Of a stretch of DNA of 64,000 bases, positions 12,071-33,130 are shown one piece after another. Positions within the stretch are counted from its first letter, which is position 1. Each line of letters starts with the position of its first letter. Source of the stretch: Candidatus Omnitrophota bacterium (lineage in GTDB: Bacteria; Omnitrophota; Gorgyraeia; Gorgyraeales; Gorgyraeaceae); NCBI GenBank assembly GCA_003485765.1, contig DNHS01000011.1, forward strand, positions 9,929-73,928, read 5' to 3'. Below the pieces are notes generated by a model. It ran no database searches. It was given only the letters and a program-made list of their open reading frames with translations, and was not told the DNA's origin. The translations under genes were made by a program, and so were the position numbers.

Positions 12071-12147
12071 GCGCCCGTAGCTCAGATGGATAGAGCGACT
12101 GGCTTCGAACCAGTAGGCTGGGTGTTCGATCCACCCCGGGCGCGCCA
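12071..12147 (+). tRNA. tRNA-Arg (anticodon TCG)
   Basis: Cloverleaf folded by hand: acceptor GCGCCCG/CGGGCGC, anticodon loop CTTCGAA, T-loop TTCGATC, encoded CCA. Confidence 0.85.
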
Positions 12148-12174
12148 AATTCGCTTCGCAAATTTTGAAAATTA

Positions 12175-12203
12175 TTGACGAATTTTTTAACCTGTGATAT
12201 CAT
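12175..12203 (+). promoter_or_regulatory. Sigma-70-like promoter (TTGACG, 17 bp spacer, TATCAT) driving the downstream tRNA array.
   Basis: -35 at 12175-12180 and -10 at 12198-12203, about 26 nt upstream of tRNA-Lys. Confidence 0.5.
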
Positions 12204-12229
12204 CTAGACTTAACGTCTGGATTAATTAC

Positions 12230-12305
12230 GCCCCCATAGCTCAGCTGGTAGAGCACCTGACTCTTAATCAGGGCGTCACAGGTTCGAACCCTGTTGGGGG
12301 TACCA
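12230..12305 (+). tRNA. tRNA-Lys (anticodon CTT)
   Basis: Acceptor GCCCCCA/TGGGGGT, anticodon loop CTCTTAA, T-loop TTCGAAC, CCA encoded. Confidence 0.85.
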
Positions 12306-12360
12306 TGAACCGGAGCGGAAAAAGGTAGCAGTAAAACGGATAGCTTAGCGACTGGTACAA

Positions 12361-12445
12361 GGGCGGATGGCGGAACTGGCAAACGCGTACGGCTTAGGAC
12401 CGTATGGAGCAATCCTTGGAGGTTCAACTCCTCTTCCGCCTACCA
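12361..12445 (+). tRNA. tRNA-Leu (anticodon TAG), class II with long variable arm.
   Basis: Acceptor GGGCGGA/TCCGCCT (G1-U72), D-arm GCG-GAACTGGCAAA-CGC, anticodon loop CTTAGGA, 13-nt variable arm, T-arm GGAGG-TTCAACT-CCTCT, CCA encoded. Confidence 0.8.
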
Positions 12446-12451
12446 TGAATT

Positions 12452-12961
12452 ATGATAAATGTTATAGATAAAATCGCAATAATGAATAAAGCTCGTGCAA
12501 AATATAGAATTGAACATGATATAGAAATTAAAGAGCAAGCAGAAAAATCTTTTGAACAGTATAAAAATGATCCACTTTTTATTGCGGGTATAATGCTTTA
12601 TTGGGCGGAGGGAAAAACTGCAGAGAAAAAAGCTTATTGTCTGGAATTGAATAATTCTGATCCTGAATTGTTAAAATTGTACTGCCGATTCCTACACAAA
12701 TATCTCAATATAGCAGAGGGTAGAATTAGAGCTAGACTGTTTCTATATCCGGATTTAAATGAGAATAATATTAAATTATATTGGTCGGAGTTATTGAATA
12801 TTCCATTAAATCAGTTTATTAAGTCCTATATAGCAGATAGCCGTAGTTCTGTTACAAAGAATAAATTGCAGTATGGGACATGCAGTGTATATATTACAAG
12901 TAAAGATTTGCGTTCTATAATGGCGGTTTGGATAGAGAAGTTCGCCAGTCTCTATTCTTAA
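12452..12961 (+). CDS. Hypothetical 169-aa protein encoded inside the tRNA array between tRNA-Leu and tRNA-Gly; strongly AT-rich.
   Basis: Clean ORF starting 6 nt after the tRNA-Leu CCA and ending 19 nt before tRNA-Gly. Its GC is clearly below that of its neighbours. No recognised motif. Confidence 0.4.
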   Translation: MINVIDKIAIMNKARAKYRIEHDIEIKEQAEKSFEQYKNDPLFIAGIMLYWAEGKTAEKKAYCLELNNSDPELLKLYCRFLHKYLNIAEGRIRARLFLYPDLNENNIKLYWSELLNIPLNQFIKSYIADSRSSVTKNKLQYGTCSVYITSKDLRSIMAVWIEKFASLYS

Positions 12962-12980
12962 AGATTAGCGTTTGAATTTC

Positions 12981-13056
<76 letters not shown>

Positions 13057-28686: not shown

Positions 28687-28920
28687 ATGCCGTACGATGC
28701 AAGTCTTGATAAGGAAGTATTTGCTAAATCTAATGAAAATGATGATGGGAAAATCACAGTGAGTGTCCATTCTTACAATAATGGCCCTAAGAAATTGCAG
28801 ATAGTAAGGGAAAATAGAGACCAGGAAGGCGGCTTTAGATTTGCAAAGCTCGGGAGAATGACCAAGGATGAAGCCCAAGCAATCCTGCCTTTTATCCAGG
28901 AAGCCCTGTCCAGTATGTAA
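28687..28920 (+). CDS. Small 77-aa protein, possibly PC4/YdbC-like ssDNA-binding fold
   Basis: The pattern ...SYNNGPKKLQI.REN....GFRFAKLGRMTKDEAQAI resembles YdbC-family proteins. This is a weak assignment by eye. Confidence 0.3.
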   Translation: MPYDASLDKEVFAKSNENDDGKITVSVHSYNNGPKKLQIVRENRDQEGGFRFAKLGRMTKDEAQAILPFIQEALSSM

Positions 28921-29085: not shown

Positions 29086-29170
29086 TTGACTCCGGTTTGG
29101 TTCATGGTAAAATGTCCACTAATAGGAAATGTCCACTATTAAGTGGACATTTATAGGAAATGGACATTTA
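29086..29170 (+). promoter_or_regulatory. Promoter with extended -10 (TTGACT, 16 bp spacer, TGgTAAAAT) overlapped by four copies of an AAATGTCCACT / AGTGGACATTT half-site; putative autoregulatory operator.
   Basis: -35 at 29086-29091 and -10 at 29108-29113. Half-sites are at 29110-29120 and 29127-29137 (direct), 29142-29152 (inverted), and a degenerate copy at 29157-29168. Confidence 0.55.
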
Positions 29171-29188
29171 GAAGAGGGAGTAACTACA

Positions 29189-29863
29189 ATGAAAATACTC
29201 TTGGGTGATAAGGCCAACATAATCATACGCGTCATGATGTCTCAGCCCGACAGGAAGTGGGTTGCGAGAGACTTTGAGAAAGAGTTTGGCGTAGGTCGCG
29301 CGCGCGCGGCCGCGGTATTATCCGCATTACGCGTGAAGGGGTTTGTCGGCGGAATTCGTTCCGGCAGGCTTGCTCATAGCGTATTGCAAAACAAAGAGGA
29401 GCTACTCGAGGAATGGCTCAAGGTTTATAAGTTTGAGCTTAATGAAGCACATCTTTATTACTCAGCTCGTGAAGATATTTTAAGTCGCTTAAAAGAATAT
29501 TTCGCGGCCAAGAATGAATCCAAGAAGTACGCCTTAACGCTTCATACCGGCGCGAATTTTATTACGCATTACGTAAATACACCAACGATATATTGCTATT
29601 TGTCGGCTGAAAAATTCAAGAATGCTTCGCTGGACTTAAGACAGTCTCTTGACCTTAAAGAATTGAAGAAAGGCGGTAATATTTATTTAATAAAACCGTA
29701 CTATAAAAATACTGTATTTTTCAATACCCAAACGATAAAAGACTACAACGTTGTTTCGGATCTCCAGCTTTACTTGGATCTGTACCACTTTCCGCAGAGA
29801 GGCAGAGATCATGCGGAATATTTGCTAAAAACCTTAAAAGAGGAAGGAAAGAACATTGTCTAA
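29189..29863 (+). CDS. Putative winged-HTH regulator / AbiEi-like antitoxin
   Basis: ATG at 29189 follows the RBS GAGGGAG; the track start at 29129 lies within the operator. N-terminal wHTH-like segment, about 224 aa. The stop overlaps the next gene by 8 nt. Confidence 0.4.
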   Translation: MKILLGDKANIIIRVMMSQPDRKWVARDFEKEFGVGRARAAAVLSALRVKGFVGGIRSGRLAHSVLQNKEELLEEWLKVYKFELNEAHLYYSAREDILSRLKEYFAAKNESKKYALTLHTGANFITHYVNTPTIYCYLSAEKFKNASLDLRQSLDLKELKKGGNIYLIKPYYKNTVFFNTQTIKDYNVVSDLQLYLDLYHFPQRGRDHAEYLLKTLKEEGKNIV

Positions 29864-30647
29864 AGAATTTTCCGGAGAAAAACTCCTCATCAAAGTCATA
29901 GACGATCTTGCAGATTTCTTGCCGTATTTGGTCCTTGTCGGAGGTTGGGTGCCATATATCTACGCCAGATATATTTGGAAGAATGTCCCCAATATGGCAG
30001 TAACAACTGGAGACATAGACTTTGGTGTTGGCGCACAGGATTACAACGGCAAGGATACTGTCGCTTCCTGTGTGCAAAGACTGGGTTACGGAGAGCGCCA
30101 TGTTTCTATGGATAGGTCATTTCCATTCGTTCCTATTGTTAAAGACGCCTCTGGAGACGTGAAAGCCGAAGTTGAATTTATTACTGATCCCAAGGTCTCG
30201 AGAAAGCTTGTAAATAAAATCGTAGGCCAAGAGATCAAGATCAATGAGATTCAGCATTTCAGTTTACTGCTTGGTTCCGTTTTAACGGCGCAAATGGACC
30301 TAAAGAGTATTCAGATACCGACCGAATCGATGTTTACTTTCCACAAATTACTTACATTTGTCGATCGGGAGAATAAGGAGAAATTAAGGAAGGATCTGTA
30401 TTACGTTTACTATATGCTGAGATTCTGCCCTAAAAGGGAACAACTTGCTGATGATGTGGTTGCTCTTATTAAAAAACGAAAAGAAGGAAAACAGGTAAAC
30501 GAAAATCTCAAAGAGTATTTCAGTAGCGTGGATTCAAAAGGACCTCTTTTTGTAGAGCAGGAAAACGGCCCAGATGCTTATATTGATAATGTGAGACAGG
30601 ATGCCTTTGATAAGTTTAGCGGAATCAGGGGAAGGGTTGAGGAGTGA
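29856..30647 (+). CDS. Nucleotidyltransferase, AbiEii/AbiGii-toxin-like
   Basis: Polymerase-beta-type NTase motif LVGGW...TTGDIDFGV near the N-terminus; 263 aa. Translationally coupled to its neighbours. Confidence 0.45.
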   Translation: MSKEFSGEKLLIKVIDDLADFLPYLVLVGGWVPYIYARYIWKNVPNMAVTTGDIDFGVGAQDYNGKDTVASCVQRLGYGERHVSMDRSFPFVPIVKDASGDVKAEVEFITDPKVSRKLVNKIVGQEIKINEIQHFSLLLGSVLTAQMDLKSIQIPTESMFTFHKLLTFVDRENKEKLRKDLYYVYYMLRFCPKREQLADDVVALIKKRKEGKQVNENLKEYFSSVDSKGPLFVEQENGPDAYIDNVRQDAFDKFSGIRGRVEE

Positions 30648-31336
30648 AGACCTACGCTATCGGGGACATCCATGGCGCTTACAAGGCGTTGATGCAGTGT
30701 TTTAAGCGCGCGAAATTCGATTATATAAAAGACCGTCTGATTGTGATGGGCGATGTTTGTGATGGGTATCCGGACGTTAAGCAGTGCATTGATGAGCTTT
30801 TGAAAATTAAGCACTGCGATCTGGTCATTGGCAATCATGATATGTGGGCTCTGGACTGGGCTTTGCGCGGCGATAAGCCGGAGATATGGACGAGTCAGGG
30901 CGGTGACCGGACAATGGCGTCTTATAACGGCGGTCCCATGCCGCAGGCGCACATCGATTTCTTGAAGGGCGGACAACTCTGGATCGAGCGAGACGAACAG
31001 GTTTTTGTGCATGGCGGGTTTAATCCGGATATATCGCTTTCAAGTCATAGCGCGCAGGCATTGGTCTGGGATAGAAGGCTCCTTGACTTGGCATGGAAGA
31101 AGCAGGTAGACGGGCATAAATGTCAATTAGGCAAGTACAAGGACATATTCGTCGGCCACACGACCACCGAGCTTTACAACACGTTACAGCCGATCCATGT
31201 GTGTAATGTTTGGAATATCGATACCGGAGCTGGATGGTCAGGGAAGCTAACTATAATGGATGTTGATACAAAGGAATATTGGCAGGCAGATTTGACGCCG
31301 GATTTATACGGCGGAACGCCTGATAGGATAAAATAA
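30644..31336 (+). CDS. Calcineurin-like metallophosphoesterase (PPP-family phosphatase)
   Basis: GDIHG, GDVCDGY and GNHD motifs. Overlaps the previous stop by 4 nt. Local GC is clearly higher than elsewhere in the window. Confidence 0.7.
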   Translation: MKTYAIGDIHGAYKALMQCFKRAKFDYIKDRLIVMGDVCDGYPDVKQCIDELLKIKHCDLVIGNHDMWALDWALRGDKPEIWTSQGGDRTMASYNGGPMPQAHIDFLKGGQLWIERDEQVFVHGGFNPDISLSSHSAQALVWDRRLLDLAWKKQVDGHKCQLGKYKDIFVGHTTTELYNTLQPIHVCNVWNIDTGAGWSGKLTIMDVDTKEYWQADLTPDLYGGTPDRIK

Positions 31337-31339
31337 CGC

Positions 31340-31894
31340 ATGAATAGCAGAAAGACCATTCCTATTATCCACATTATCGGCTTGCCGGGTGCTGGGAAAA
31401 CGACATTATCTCGAAGATTAAGTAAGGTATTAAAAGTGCCGGTGATTCATATCGGTTACCATAGGGCGCGATTTCTACAGACGCCTATGGGTGAGGCCGA
31501 CGCGTGGATTGCGTTGTTTCGGGAGCTATCGCGGCGCCGATGGAAGAATTGTATACTCGAAACCACAGGGTTGAATCGTAGAGAAGAATTCCTAAGAACA
31601 GCATTGCCTTTTGAGCAGGTCTTTACGATCAAGTTGGACGCGTCTCGTAAGACCCTTGCCGCGCGTATTCGTAAAAAGAAGAAACGAGATCGAGGGGGCA
31701 GGTGGTTTTACGGTGCGGAATACCGGAATAAATATGAATTTGTCCGAAAGCTCTTCAAACACTTTCGTAAAATTCCCGCAAATTGTCGTATTAACACCAA
31801 CCGACTAACCAGTGCAGCGGTGTATCAGCTGGCACTCAAAGAAATCAATTTTATGGGATCAATTATGACGGTAAATCATAATCATTCATCTTAA
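31340..31894 (+). CDS. P-loop NTPase / small-molecule or polynucleotide kinase-like protein
   Basis: Walker A GLPGAGKTT at the N-terminus; 184 aa, basic C-terminal half; 3 nt after the phosphoesterase stop. Confidence 0.5.
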   Translation: MNSRKTIPIIHIIGLPGAGKTTLSRRLSKVLKVPVIHIGYHRARFLQTPMGEADAWIALFRELSRRRWKNCILETTGLNRREEFLRTALPFEQVFTIKLDASRKTLAARIRKKKKRDRGGRWFYGAEYRNKYEFVRKLFKHFRKIPANCRINTNRLTSAAVYQLALKEINFMGSIMTVNHNHSS

Positions 31895-31909
31895 AAATAT
31901 AGGCGATGA

Positions 31910-33130
31910 ATGAGAGCGACTTTACATAATATGTTTAAAAACAATGAGTTACAAAAAACAGTCTACATCCGTACCTTCGGTTGCCAGATGAATGAGCATG
32001 ATTCCGGCAGGTTAAAGGACTTGCTATTAGAGCGGGGTTATACCTTTTGCGATAGTCTGGAATTTGCGGATGTGGTTATTTTTAATACCTGCAGCGTCAG
32101 GAAACATGCTGAGGATAGGGTATATGGTAAGGTAGGGGAGCTCCAAAAATTAAAGGCCAAGAAACCAGGCCTTATAGTAGGCATTATCGGGTGTATGGCA
32201 GAGGCGCAGAAAGACGAGATTTTTAGAAGGCTTCCTATTGTAAATTTTTTATGCGGGCCAGCTGATTTAGATAATGTTCCCGGCATTATTGATAGAATTA
32301 AAAACGGCGCAGGCCGTATTATGTATCTGGAAGGCTATAAATCAAAAATAATCCCAGCCTTTTCCAGAAACAGAAAAACCGGCGAAACTGCGTATGTAAA
32401 AATAATGGAAGGCTGCGATAAATTTTGTTCATATTGCATAGTTCCTTATGTTCGGGGCATGGAAAGAAGCAGGCCATCAAAGGAGATTTTAGAAGAAATA
32501 GAGTCATTGATAAAAAAAGGCGCTAAAAATATTACACTATTAGGCCAGAATGTTAATTCATATGGCAAAGGCCTTCAGGAAAAAATCAATTTTGTCGCTC
32601 TCCTTACAAAAATAGATAAATTAACCTCTATCCATCCCAGGGGCGCCATCCCAGGGGCGCCATCCCAGGGGCGCGAAGGTGATATTAAAATAAGTTTTTT
32701 TACCAGCCATCCGAAGGATGCAAGCTTGGAATTATTCAGAGCAATAAGGGATCTAAAATCTATAGTAAAAATCTTGCATTTACCTATCCAGTCCGGCTCG
32801 GATAAAATACTAAAGAGAATGAATCGAAAATATACAGTAGCGAAATATAAAAAGCTCGCAGGTGATTACAAAAAAATTGTTAAAAGCGGCAATATCAGCG
32901 GAGATATTATTGTGGGTTTTCCGGGCGAGACAGAGAAAGATTTTAATGATACCTTTAATATAGTCAAAAAACTTCAATTTGACGCAGCTTATATCTTTAA
33001 ATATTCTCCCAGGCCTTTTACAAAAGCAGCTGGATTTAAAGATGACGTGAGCCTTGAAGAAAAAGAAAGGCGCCACACTTTGCTTCTAGATTTACAAAGA
33101 AGCATATTATTAAATAAAAAATGCCAGTAA
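31910..33130 (+). CDS. miaB: tRNA-i6A37 methylthiotransferase MiaB
   Basis: MTTase N-terminal Cys triad (FGCQMNEHDS...NTCSVR...GCMA), radical SAM CDKFCSYC and a TRAM-like C-terminus. Contains an in-frame 3 x 14-nt tandem repeat. Confidence 0.8.
   Translation: MRATLHNMFKNNELQKTVYIRTFGCQMNEHDSGRLKDLLLERGYTFCDSLEFADVVIFNTCSVRKHAEDRVYGKVGELQKLKAKKPGLIVGIIGCMAEAQKDEIFRRLPIVNFLCGPADLDNVPGIIDRIKNGAGRIMYLEGYKSKIIPAFSRNRKTGETAYVKIMEGCDKFCSYCIVPYVRGMERSRPSKEILEEIESLIKKGAKNITLLGQNVNSYGKGLQEKINFVALLTKIDKLTSIHPRGAIPGAPSQGREGDIKISFFTSHPKDASLELFRAIRDLKSIVKILHLPIQSGSDKILKRMNRKYTVAKYKKLAGDYKKIVKSGNISGDIIVGFPGETEKDFNDTFNIVKKLQFDAAYIFKYSPRPFTKAAGFKDDVSLEEKERRHTLLLDLQRSILLNKKCQ
32632..32673 (+). repeat. Perfect tandem repeat, 3 copies of CCATCCCAGGGGCG, inside miaB
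   Basis: Read directly from the sequence. It encodes the inserted peptide HPRGAIPGAPSQGR in a loop of MiaB. It is GC-rich within an AT-rich gene. Confidence 0.9.

Follow-up and report, generated by a model that had tools for sequence, protein, structure and literature searches.

The DNA analyzed here is a 64-kb window of a Candidatus Omnitrophota contig (DNHS01000011.1, positions 9,929 to 73,928; assembly GCA_003485765.1), which carries four closely packed genes on its forward strand: g1, coding for a regulator, g2 for a nucleotidyltransferase (NTase), g3 for a phosphoesterase and g4 for a kinase (Table 1). We conclude that this cassette is very probably a horizontally transferred, autoregulated toxin-antitoxin (TA) or abortive-infection operon of the AbiE/MenT class, in which g3 is a conserved accessory gene and g4 an optional one. 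NTase toxins of the AbiE/MenT kind are widespread, also in Mycobacterium tuberculosis, and the AbiE/MenAT systems, first regarded as type IV TA, are now argued to be of type VII. The TA class is known as such; what appears to be new is an operon of this kind that includes a lambda-phosphatase-like phosphoesterase and, optionally, a kinase. In the literature searched, we met with no account of a phosphoesterase or kinase coupled to an AbiE/MenT module. The products of g2, g3 and g4 are identical to the hypothetical proteins A2047_03340, A2047_03335 and A2047_03330 of Omnitrophica bacterium GWA2_41_15, in whose annotation all four genes are "hypothetical".

Table 1. Features of the cassette, in window coordinates.
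Feature	Coordinates	Strand	Description
Sigma-70-like promoter	29086..29113	+	-35 TTGACT, 16-nt spacer, TG-extended -10 TAAAAT; 10/12 consensus positions
Putative operator	29110..29169	+	Four 11-nt half-sites, 17-nt spacing
g1	29189..29863	+	AbiEi_2-family antitoxin/autorepressor (predicted), 224 aa
g2	29856..30647	+	NTP_transf_8 NTase, 263 aa, TTG start; presumed toxin
g3	30644..31336	+	NinI/lambda-phosphatase-type binuclear metallophosphoesterase (predicted), 230 aa, GTG start
g4	31340..31894	+	Orphan small P-loop kinase (predicted), 184 aa

The four open reading frames (ORFs) are coupled with the spacing given in the initial annotation. The TTG start of g2 lies 8 nt before the g1 stop (TTGTCTAA), an 8-nt overlap that is conserved across homologues; g2 and g3 overlap by 4 nt (GTGA), and a 3-nt spacer separates g3 from g4 (TAA-CGC-ATG). 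The stop codon of g4 is followed after 15 nt by the start of miaB, with no terminator-like site between them. The sole terminator-like site of the region falls within g3 and is below chance expectation. No Rfam family or tRNA gene was found near the cassette, and no paralogue of g1 to g4 elsewhere in the window.

The promoter was indeed found to be operator-rich, as first noted, with the -35 and -10 boxes accompanied by four conserved half-sites. Direct copies of the half-site AAATGTCCACT are located at 29110, where the first overlaps the -10 box, and at 29127; the inverted half-sites, AGTGGACATTT / ATGGACATTT (its complement), are located at 29142 and 29159. The exact AATGTCCAC has only one further copy in the whole 64 kb. 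About 20 upstream regions of homologues follow the same plan, with TTGAC(T), a -10 box, two direct and two inverted half-sites, a ribosome-binding site and an ATG. One clade, in which the identity of g1 falls to 44-50%, has AATGTTCA[CG]T as its half-site and not AATGTCCACT. That the half-site and the regulator clade change together is good in-silico evidence for autoregulation, and suggests that g1 binds to the half-sites and represses its own promoter. The AbiEi-like nature of g1 was likewise confirmed: its C-terminal 147 residues match Pfam AbiEi_2 (PF09952) with 41.4 bits (cut-off 21). The N-terminal 65 residues resemble a winged helix by eye only, and none of the models detects one in this part of the protein. 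The g1 frame also contains an ATG further upstream, at 29129, inside the operator and within the second half-site. We place the start at 29189, because this ATG is preceded by a ribosome-binding site (GAGGGAG), yields a protein of the length of the 224-aa homologues and is conserved; the codon at 29129 is probably unused.

The description of g2 as an AbiEii-like NTase holds for the superfamily and for the NTase motifs, but not for the AbiEii family as defined by Pfam. The protein matches NTP_transf_8 (PF12281) with 30.1 bits (cut-off 26.3), whereas AbiEii (DUF1814, PF08843) scores 15.3 bits, below its cut-off of 22.5, and covers the C-terminal motif alone. The motifs are GGW, T51-G-D53-I-D55-F, E107-F and H163-K...R171...K176..K179-D180, and in an alignment of 18 family members T51, D53, D55, F56, E107, F108, H163, R171, K176, K179 and D180 are invariant. 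With hhalign, the GG...TxDIDF block of g2 falls on the KGG...TxDID block of AbiEii, in a weak match (E 0.012, probability 3.6%). Judged from these alignments, the g2 family is a sister of AbiEii, outside the Pfam family, and shares its active-site plan, including [ST]xDxD. With the PADLOC models, which include AbiE, g1 had no match and g2 had chance-level matches only (E up to 1); g2 also had no match in a plasmid collection.

As in AbiE/MenAT, the gene of the antitoxin precedes and overlaps that of the toxin, the antitoxin is a member of one of the AbiEi families of Pfam, and repeated as well as inverted operator sites, of the sort described for AbiEi autoregulation, are present in the promoter. 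The GG, [ST]xDxD and C-terminal K/R...KD motifs of g2 are also shared, and so is the phospho-acceptor position: the invariant T51-G-D53 of g2 corresponds to T39 and D41 of MenT1, as in the type VII NTase toxins. The cassette differs from AbiE/MenAT in that g2 is of the NTP_transf_8 and not of the AbiEii/DUF1814 family, in that g1 is of the AbiEi_2 and not of the studied AbiEi_4/COG5340 type, and in having two more enzyme genes coupled downstream. MenT toxins are reported to add nucleotides to tRNA acceptor ends (PMC7450476, PMC10435456, PMC11541572). By analogy, g1 would keep g2 inactive and, by way of the four half-sites, repress the promoter of the operon, and g2, once released, would add nucleotides to tRNA 3' ends so that translation stops. 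What the analysis shows directly is the order and coupling of the genes, their families, the operator, the co-occurrence and the horizontal transfer; the toxicity of g2, its tRNA target and all of the enzyme activities assigned below to g3 and g4 are inferred.

Scanning metagenomes with a g3 profile gave 80 loci, in which ORFs were called and clustered and the clusters named by Pfam. The upstream side of g3 was readable in 60 loci, and the presence of g4 after g3 could be counted over 63; since the set contains near-duplicates, the 60 loci do not stand for 60 independent events. In 31/60 loci the gene that immediately precedes g3 on the same strand codes for an NTase: 19 are of the g2 type and fall into two clades, one with about 80-90% and the other with about 40-50% identity to g2; 10 code for AbiEii proteins (137-142 bits), behind AbiEi_4-type genes; and 2 code for NTP_transf_8 proteins of a family here called C24 (85 bits), behind a 105-aa protein. 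In 9/60 loci the antitoxin gene alone precedes g3, and in the remaining 20/60 another gene does, for example purE-purC or RhuM. The order g1-g2-g3 recurs in more than 20 independent contigs, members of both g2 clades retain the overlap of 4 nt between g2 and g3, and NTase-g3 pairs occur in at least 10 different downstream contexts. Moreover, g3 copies about 90% identical to that of the window follow toxins of the close and the distant g2 clade and AbiEii toxins alike. We conclude that g3 is a module recombining among toxin pairs; since it is near-identical behind unrelated NTases, its substrate may be a generic one.

The kinase gene is a looser component. It directly follows g3 in 8/63 loci, with truncated remnants in several more (truncated or frameshifted copies are found in loci L044, L047, L092 and L104), and the full four-gene order was found elsewhere in L014, in L060 at a contig edge, and in L066 with an extra ORF between g3 and g4. 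Thus, of the four-gene cassette originally proposed, the NTase-g3 core recurs whereas g4 is facultative. In L001/L013 (L001 3594-5983), a second TA pair, of AbiEi_3 and AbiEii, stands in the place of g3, between g2 and g4, and the first 22 codons of g3 are left, which is direct evidence of module swapping within the cassette. Among 40 loci centered on g4, a metallophosphoesterase gene is found within three genes of g4 in 9, and these enzymes belong to three Metallophos families, C1 (the g3 type), C10 and C31. An NTase gene lies within three genes in 11/40, including MenT1-like proteins with Rv0078B-type antitoxins, and 9/40 loci are type I-B CRISPR-cas loci of other phyla. Other neighbors of g4 are GHKL ATPases, AAA_14/DUF4143 proteins, RhuM and an IS200-type transposase. 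A pair formed by a kinase toxin and a phosphatase antitoxin was ruled out, as 31/40 g4 loci have no phosphoesterase within three genes.

Several arrangements were seen in addition. In L069-L072, L058, L073, L089 and L126, g1 and g3 are kept and g2 is deleted or degraded, and several loci without g2 have extra short g1-like genes (about 180 aa) downstream. Genes of a family without Pfam match (C4, 255-296 aa) lie directly upstream of g4 in L006 (5227-5994) and L015 (4114-5004) and directly downstream of g3 in L069-L072 (L069 4829-5611); a second such family (N15, about 125 aa) lies directly downstream of g3 in L121 (3308-3688) and L067 (2583-2948). Both may be alternative accessory genes. In L021, L026, L033, L036-L039 and L042, a member of the g4 family (52-61% identical) is found between cas3/cas6b and cas1 of type I-B systems; the hosts are Brocadiae, Thermodesulfobacteriota, Nitrospirota and other metagenome-assembled genomes, and a MenT1-like and Rv0078B-type pair often adjoins. 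A 600-aa GHKL ATPase (HATPase_c_3) is encoded after g4 in L008 (6091-7884), L009 (874-2700), L011 (2134-3969), L020 (3427-5265) and L100 (1306-3111), and in the same position L001 codes for a far larger protein (more than 3500 aa), whose match to HATPase_c_3 is faint.

Three further Omnitrophota contigs, in which the cassette likewise lies just upstream of miaB, were used for comparison with the window. In L014, the identities to the window are 50% for g1, 43% for g2, 90% for g3 and 79% for g4, with 44% for MiaB and 54% for MiaA. In L106, they are 84% for g1, 83% for g2 and 77% for g3, g4 being absent, with 40% for MiaB and 46% for MiaA. In L020, where g1-g2 are replaced by a different pair, they are 76% for g3 and 61% for g4, with 46% for MiaB and 45% for MiaA. 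With the exception of g1-g2 of L014, the cassette genes are much more alike than MiaB and MiaA (g3 76-90% and g4 61-79%, against 40-55%), from which it follows that the cassette was exchanged horizontally and that the island recognized in the initial annotation is a transferred one. It is found directly upstream of miaB in five Omnitrophota contigs (window 31894-31910, L014 3381-3384, L106 6950-6953, L020 7216 and L049 3822), whose MiaB proteins are only 40-47% identical to that of the window; in L014, g4 and miaB even share 4 nt. The recurrent miaB site may be a hotspot of insertion, or it may reflect a functional connection with tRNA modification. Base composition sets g3 apart most clearly: its GC content is 0.492 (0.58 at third codon positions), in the 98th percentile of 700-nt windows, against a window mean of 0.401 (sd 0.038). 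The shift is mild in g4 (0.447), so that the GC-richness ascribed to the last two genes applies in full to g3 only; g1 and g2 are unshifted (about 0.415).

Could g3 and g4 be independent defense or housekeeping genes that were merely gathered at shared hotspots, here upstream of miaB? The varied contexts of g4 (CRISPR-cas I-B, AAA_14/DUF4143, GHKL ATPase, IS200-type transposase), the position of g3 after purE-purC and in other contexts in 20/60 loci, the shuffling that puts the same g3 behind different NTases, and the common occurrence of damaged g4 copies would all fit such an origin. Chance co-location, however, does not predict that two g2 clades conserve the 4-nt overlap of g2 with g3, that adjacency of NTase and g3 is found with three NTase families and in at least 10 downstream contexts, or that g4 pairs with three Metallophos families. 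We consider this explanation very unlikely. The narrower idea that g3-g4 are conserved housekeeping genes beside a hotspot was rejected, as both flanks of g3 vary and the cassette is far more alike than its flanks.

The product of g3 is a calcineurin-like phosphoesterase, as first described (Pfam Metallophos, 45.5 bits), and its closest resemblance is to the phosphatase of phage lambda. It matches the PHROG 246 family "NinI-like serine-threonine phosphatase" (1.9e-43) and aligns over its full length with lambda phosphatase (PDB 1g5b; 2.5e-9 alone and 3.4e-16 with the family profile). In the family-profile search of the PDB, the entry 4j6o, which we take to be the phosphatase domain of Clostridium thermocellum Pnkp (CthPnkp), was also matched, far more weakly (6e-4). 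The metal ligands are intact (motifs GDIHG, GD, GNHD, VHGG and GHT). Compared with lambda Ser/Thr phosphatase (NinI) and E. coli PrpA/PrpB, g3 is of equal size, aligns in full length and has every metal ligand, but the identity is only 22-30% and motif II reads GDVCDGY where those enzymes have GDLVDRG; the score with the NCBIfam model for PrpA is 60.6 (cut-off 326). Motif II is invariant in the family and has an aromatic residue in place of the Arg of GDxxDRG, which in lambda phosphatase and PP1 serves in phosphate binding. The exchange of this Arg for an aromatic residue would fit a nucleotide substrate. Matches of g3 in the plasmid collection have at most 30% identity, and g3 and its phage relatives form a subfamily of their own, marked by GD[VI][CT]DG[YW].

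These phage relatives were found in 55 loci of viral contigs and are 33-48% identical to g3. In 8/55, the g3-type gene adjoins an RNA ligase gene (PF09414 with a PHA02142 OB domain), and three of these loci, L147-L149, also hold an AAA_33 kinase with the RDD motif of polynucleotide kinase (Pnk); in L148, Pfam also confirms an HAD_PNKP domain. In L147 (4995-7924), the order is phosphoesterase, RNA ligase and AAA_33 Pnk-type kinase, with another phosphoesterase-like ORF, unrecognized by Pfam, in fourth place; in L148 (5001-8967), phosphoesterase, RNA ligase and kinase are followed two genes on by the HAD_PNKP domain. To judge by their domains, the clusters of L147 and L148 can be regarded as an RNA-repair set split over several genes. 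An RtcB gene is found six genes away from the g3-type gene in Cellulophaga phage Calle_1. As in the RNA repair of T4-type phages (Pnk and RNA ligase), phosphoesterase, ligase and RDD-motif kinase thus stand together in L147-L149; unlike the cassette, however, these are phage genes and the g4 family is not among them. No member of the g4 family was found in the viral contigs, and the g4 profile aligns with the phage Pnk-type kinases at the P-loop only, or spuriously. The position of phage homologues beside RNA ligase and Pnk-type kinases gives partial support to a role of g3 in RNA-end processing. Both lambda phosphatase and the CthPnkp phosphatase domain are reported to have 2',3'-cyclic phosphodiesterase activity (PMC2190708).

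A different role for g3 is suggested by the way in which the known toxins are controlled. MenT1 autophosphorylates at T39, beside the catalytic D41, when induced by MenA1, and its NTase activity is thereby blocked (PMC11375011). AbiEii is phosphorylated at T65 in the presence of AbiEi, and the Ser/Thr phosphatase SaSTP reactivates it in vitro; the authors of that study left the role of cellular phosphatases in vivo for exploration (bioRxiv 10.64898/2026.01.19.700257). Accordingly, g3 might be a dedicated lambda-type protein phosphatase that strips an inhibitory Ser/Thr phosphate from the toxin, so that a stored, inactive toxin is quickly re-armed when the antitoxin is lost, with g4 acting as the antitoxin-independent reverse kinase or as a regulator of g3. 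The autophosphorylation of AbiEii and its reactivation by a phosphatase give this possibility the best experimental precedent. In line with it, T51-x-D53 is invariant in the g2 family, with [ST]xDxD also present in the AbiEii, C24 and C6 neighbors; g3 is tightly coupled, in translation, to the toxin gene in 31/60 loci and resembles lambda Ser/Thr phosphatase over its full length, as well as the NinI-like PHROG family; and g4 is found beside MenT1-like and Rv0078B-type pairs that have no phosphoesterase. The Thr, however, is generally conserved in NTases and hence is not diagnostic, and the motif II Arg, with which lambda phosphatase and PP1 bind the phosphate, is missing from g3. Phages would gain nothing by arming a toxin of the host, yet they carry homologues of g3 beside RNA-repair genes, and g3 persists without the toxin gene in L069-L072. 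Lastly, g4 would need to be a protein kinase, and to our knowledge small P-loop kinases of this fold do not act as such. On balance we find a phosphatase of the toxin rather unlikely, if well worth considering.

That g4 codes for a P-loop kinase was confirmed by matches to generic models of such kinases (AAA_18, 39.4 bits, and AAA_33, 32.2 bits), and the sequence has a Walker A motif (GLPGAGKT), an ILETTGLN strand and a basic lid, R109xxxK113. Among 70 family members, AAA_18 is matched by 70, AAA_33 by 66 and SKI by 53. The family comprises about 520 clusters, all at least 46% identical and with invariant residues of their own; no distant relatives of it were detected, and no curated equivalog of NCBIfam, NMP (nucleoside monophosphate) kinases included, comes near its cut-off with g4. 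An AlphaFold model built from a deeper alignment (pLDDT, the predicted local distance difference test, of 87) matches generic NMP, sugar and RNA kinases, among them UMP, CMP and adenylate kinases and gluconokinase, which is not diagnostic; a first model, from a shallow alignment, reached a pLDDT of 58 and its fold matches were not trusted. Homologues are annotated in their sources as cytidylate, thymidylate or shikimate kinases. Shikimate kinase was rejected, with an NCBIfam score of 20.8 against 180 and a context that is never one of aromatic biosynthesis, although Pfam SKI nominally passes (25.6, cut-off 22.1). A PADLOC match to "VakA" was also set aside, as it covers the P-loop alone and nothing relevant was found in the literature on VakA.

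In the initial annotation, g3 and g4 were compared with the two end-healing activities of Pnkp. For the kinase half, this was not supported: hhalign aligns g4 with T4 Pnk at the P-loop only, and the position of the Pnk Asp-x-x-Arg is G-x-[YH]-R in the g4 family. On inspection by eye, two elements of g4 have lookalikes in such enzymes, namely ILETTGLN in the SDTN strand of Pnk and R109xxxK113 in the RxxxR lid found in the Pnk/PSTK group; we regard this as a lead. The sequence of g4 is compatible with an RNA-directed enzyme, but g4 cannot be called one. The phosphoesterase half of the comparison fared better, g3 being of the lambda-phosphatase type and having phage relatives with RNA-repair neighbors. 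Like Clostridium thermocellum Pnkp (with Hen1) and the split Pnkp1-Rnl-Hen1 system, the cassette combines a P-loop kinase with a binuclear metallophosphoesterase of the lambda-phosphatase clade, and an RNA ligase is added in related bacterial loci (PF09414 near g3 or g4 in L108, L029, L131, L127 and L027) and in phage homologues. It differs in that the enzymes are encoded by separate genes, phosphoesterase then kinase, attached to a TA module, in the lack of Pnk-specific similarity and of Asp-x-x-Arg in g4, and in the lack of the motif II Arg in g3. Neither a ligase/adenylyltransferase domain nor Hen1 was found in the cassette and its flanks. Hence g3 and g4 may be said to resemble the logic of an end-healing phosphoesterase and kinase, g4 not being a member of the Pnk family. 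On the whole, the initial annotation is borne out in part.

The resemblance of g4 to nucleotide kinases also bears on a possible role of both enzymes in small-molecule metabolism, in which g3 would hydrolyze dinucleoside tetraphosphates (Np4N), like ApaH, or a signal linked to the NTase, and g4 would be an NMP or nucleoside kinase tuning the NTP pool of the toxin. The N-terminal half of g3 does resemble ApaH (NCBIfam NF001204, 1.3e-19; PDB 9t9n is likewise matched), and the fold matches of g4 and the annotations of its homologues would agree with such a role. The ApaH score of g3, however, falls far short of the cut-off (70.6, cut-off 176), and the match is confined to residues 1-148, the C-terminal part of the chain of about 280 aa being missing; g3 was on these grounds rejected as an ApaH-type Np4N hydrolase. 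The isolation of the g4 family, with its own invariant residues and with no NMP-kinase equivalog near its cut-off, likewise speaks against this role, and we know of no signaling role of AbiEii/MenT enzymes. Small-molecule substrates therefore appear highly improbable.

The reading that we rank first, tentatively and with rather less than even confidence, is that g3 acts on RNA 3' ends and that g4 is a kinase acting on the same RNA or nucleotide substrates. g3 would be a 2',3'-cyclic or 3'-phosphoesterase, or a phosphodiesterase, working at the RNA end that the toxin attacks. It would produce substrates with a 3'-OH or else, in the course of recovery, trim ends and restore them, while the kinase activity would come from g4. 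This reading is put first because it alone explains the RNA-repair neighborhoods of the phage homologues, the RNA ligase genes of bacterial loci, the association of g4 with phosphoesterases of three families, the replacement of the motif II Arg by an aromatic residue and the free exchange of near-identical g3 copies among unrelated toxins. Several observations weigh against it or against the assignment of the operon on which it builds. g2 has no experimentally studied close relative, and PADLOC AbiE is matched by neither g1 nor g2. The phage homologues, at 33-48% identity, may differ in function, and the g4 family is absent from the viral contigs. In bacteria, an RNA ligase gene is near g3 or g4 in only 5/135 loci, g4 is missing from most g3 loci, and g3 is also found after purE-purC and with the antitoxin alone. 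g4 has neither the catalytic Asp of Pnk nor Pnk-specific similarity, and it is not obvious how end healing would relate to a toxin by which nucleotides are added to a 3'-OH. A more specific proposal, which we hold to be quite improbable, is that g3 is a tRNA 3'-end eraser or repair enzyme that removes the additions made by AbiE/MenT toxins, or the blocking phosphate left after trimming, as a built-in means of recovery with g4 as its partner; the phage version, beside RNA ligase and Pnk, would then be a counter-defense to immunity that targets tRNA.

Other features of the window lie outside the cassette. A 77-aa ORF just upstream of the promoter region (28687-28920) has no family match and no homologue in related loci. 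Four tRNA genes (Arg-TCG, Lys-CTT, Leu-TAG and Gly-GCC) are clustered at 12071-13056, at a distance from the cassette. From 35388 to 64000 (+), a single stop-free frame of 28.6 kb continues past the end of the window. Giant genes are known from Omnitrophota, and this frame is presumably one of them; its true start may be later, because the first 2 kb have an unusually low GC content (0.31-0.33) and a negative GC skew.

The coupling of g3 to toxin genes makes it a testable candidate for an enzyme that re-arms the toxin or undoes the damage that the toxin causes, its substrate being a phosphorylated toxin or the ends of tRNA or other RNA, and for this reason we regard the finding as being of moderate to high interest. 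Either substrate, if true, would add a new layer to the AbiE/MenT class of TA systems. The link to phage RNA repair would, in addition, tie the g3 family to the tRNA-centered arms race between phages and their hosts.

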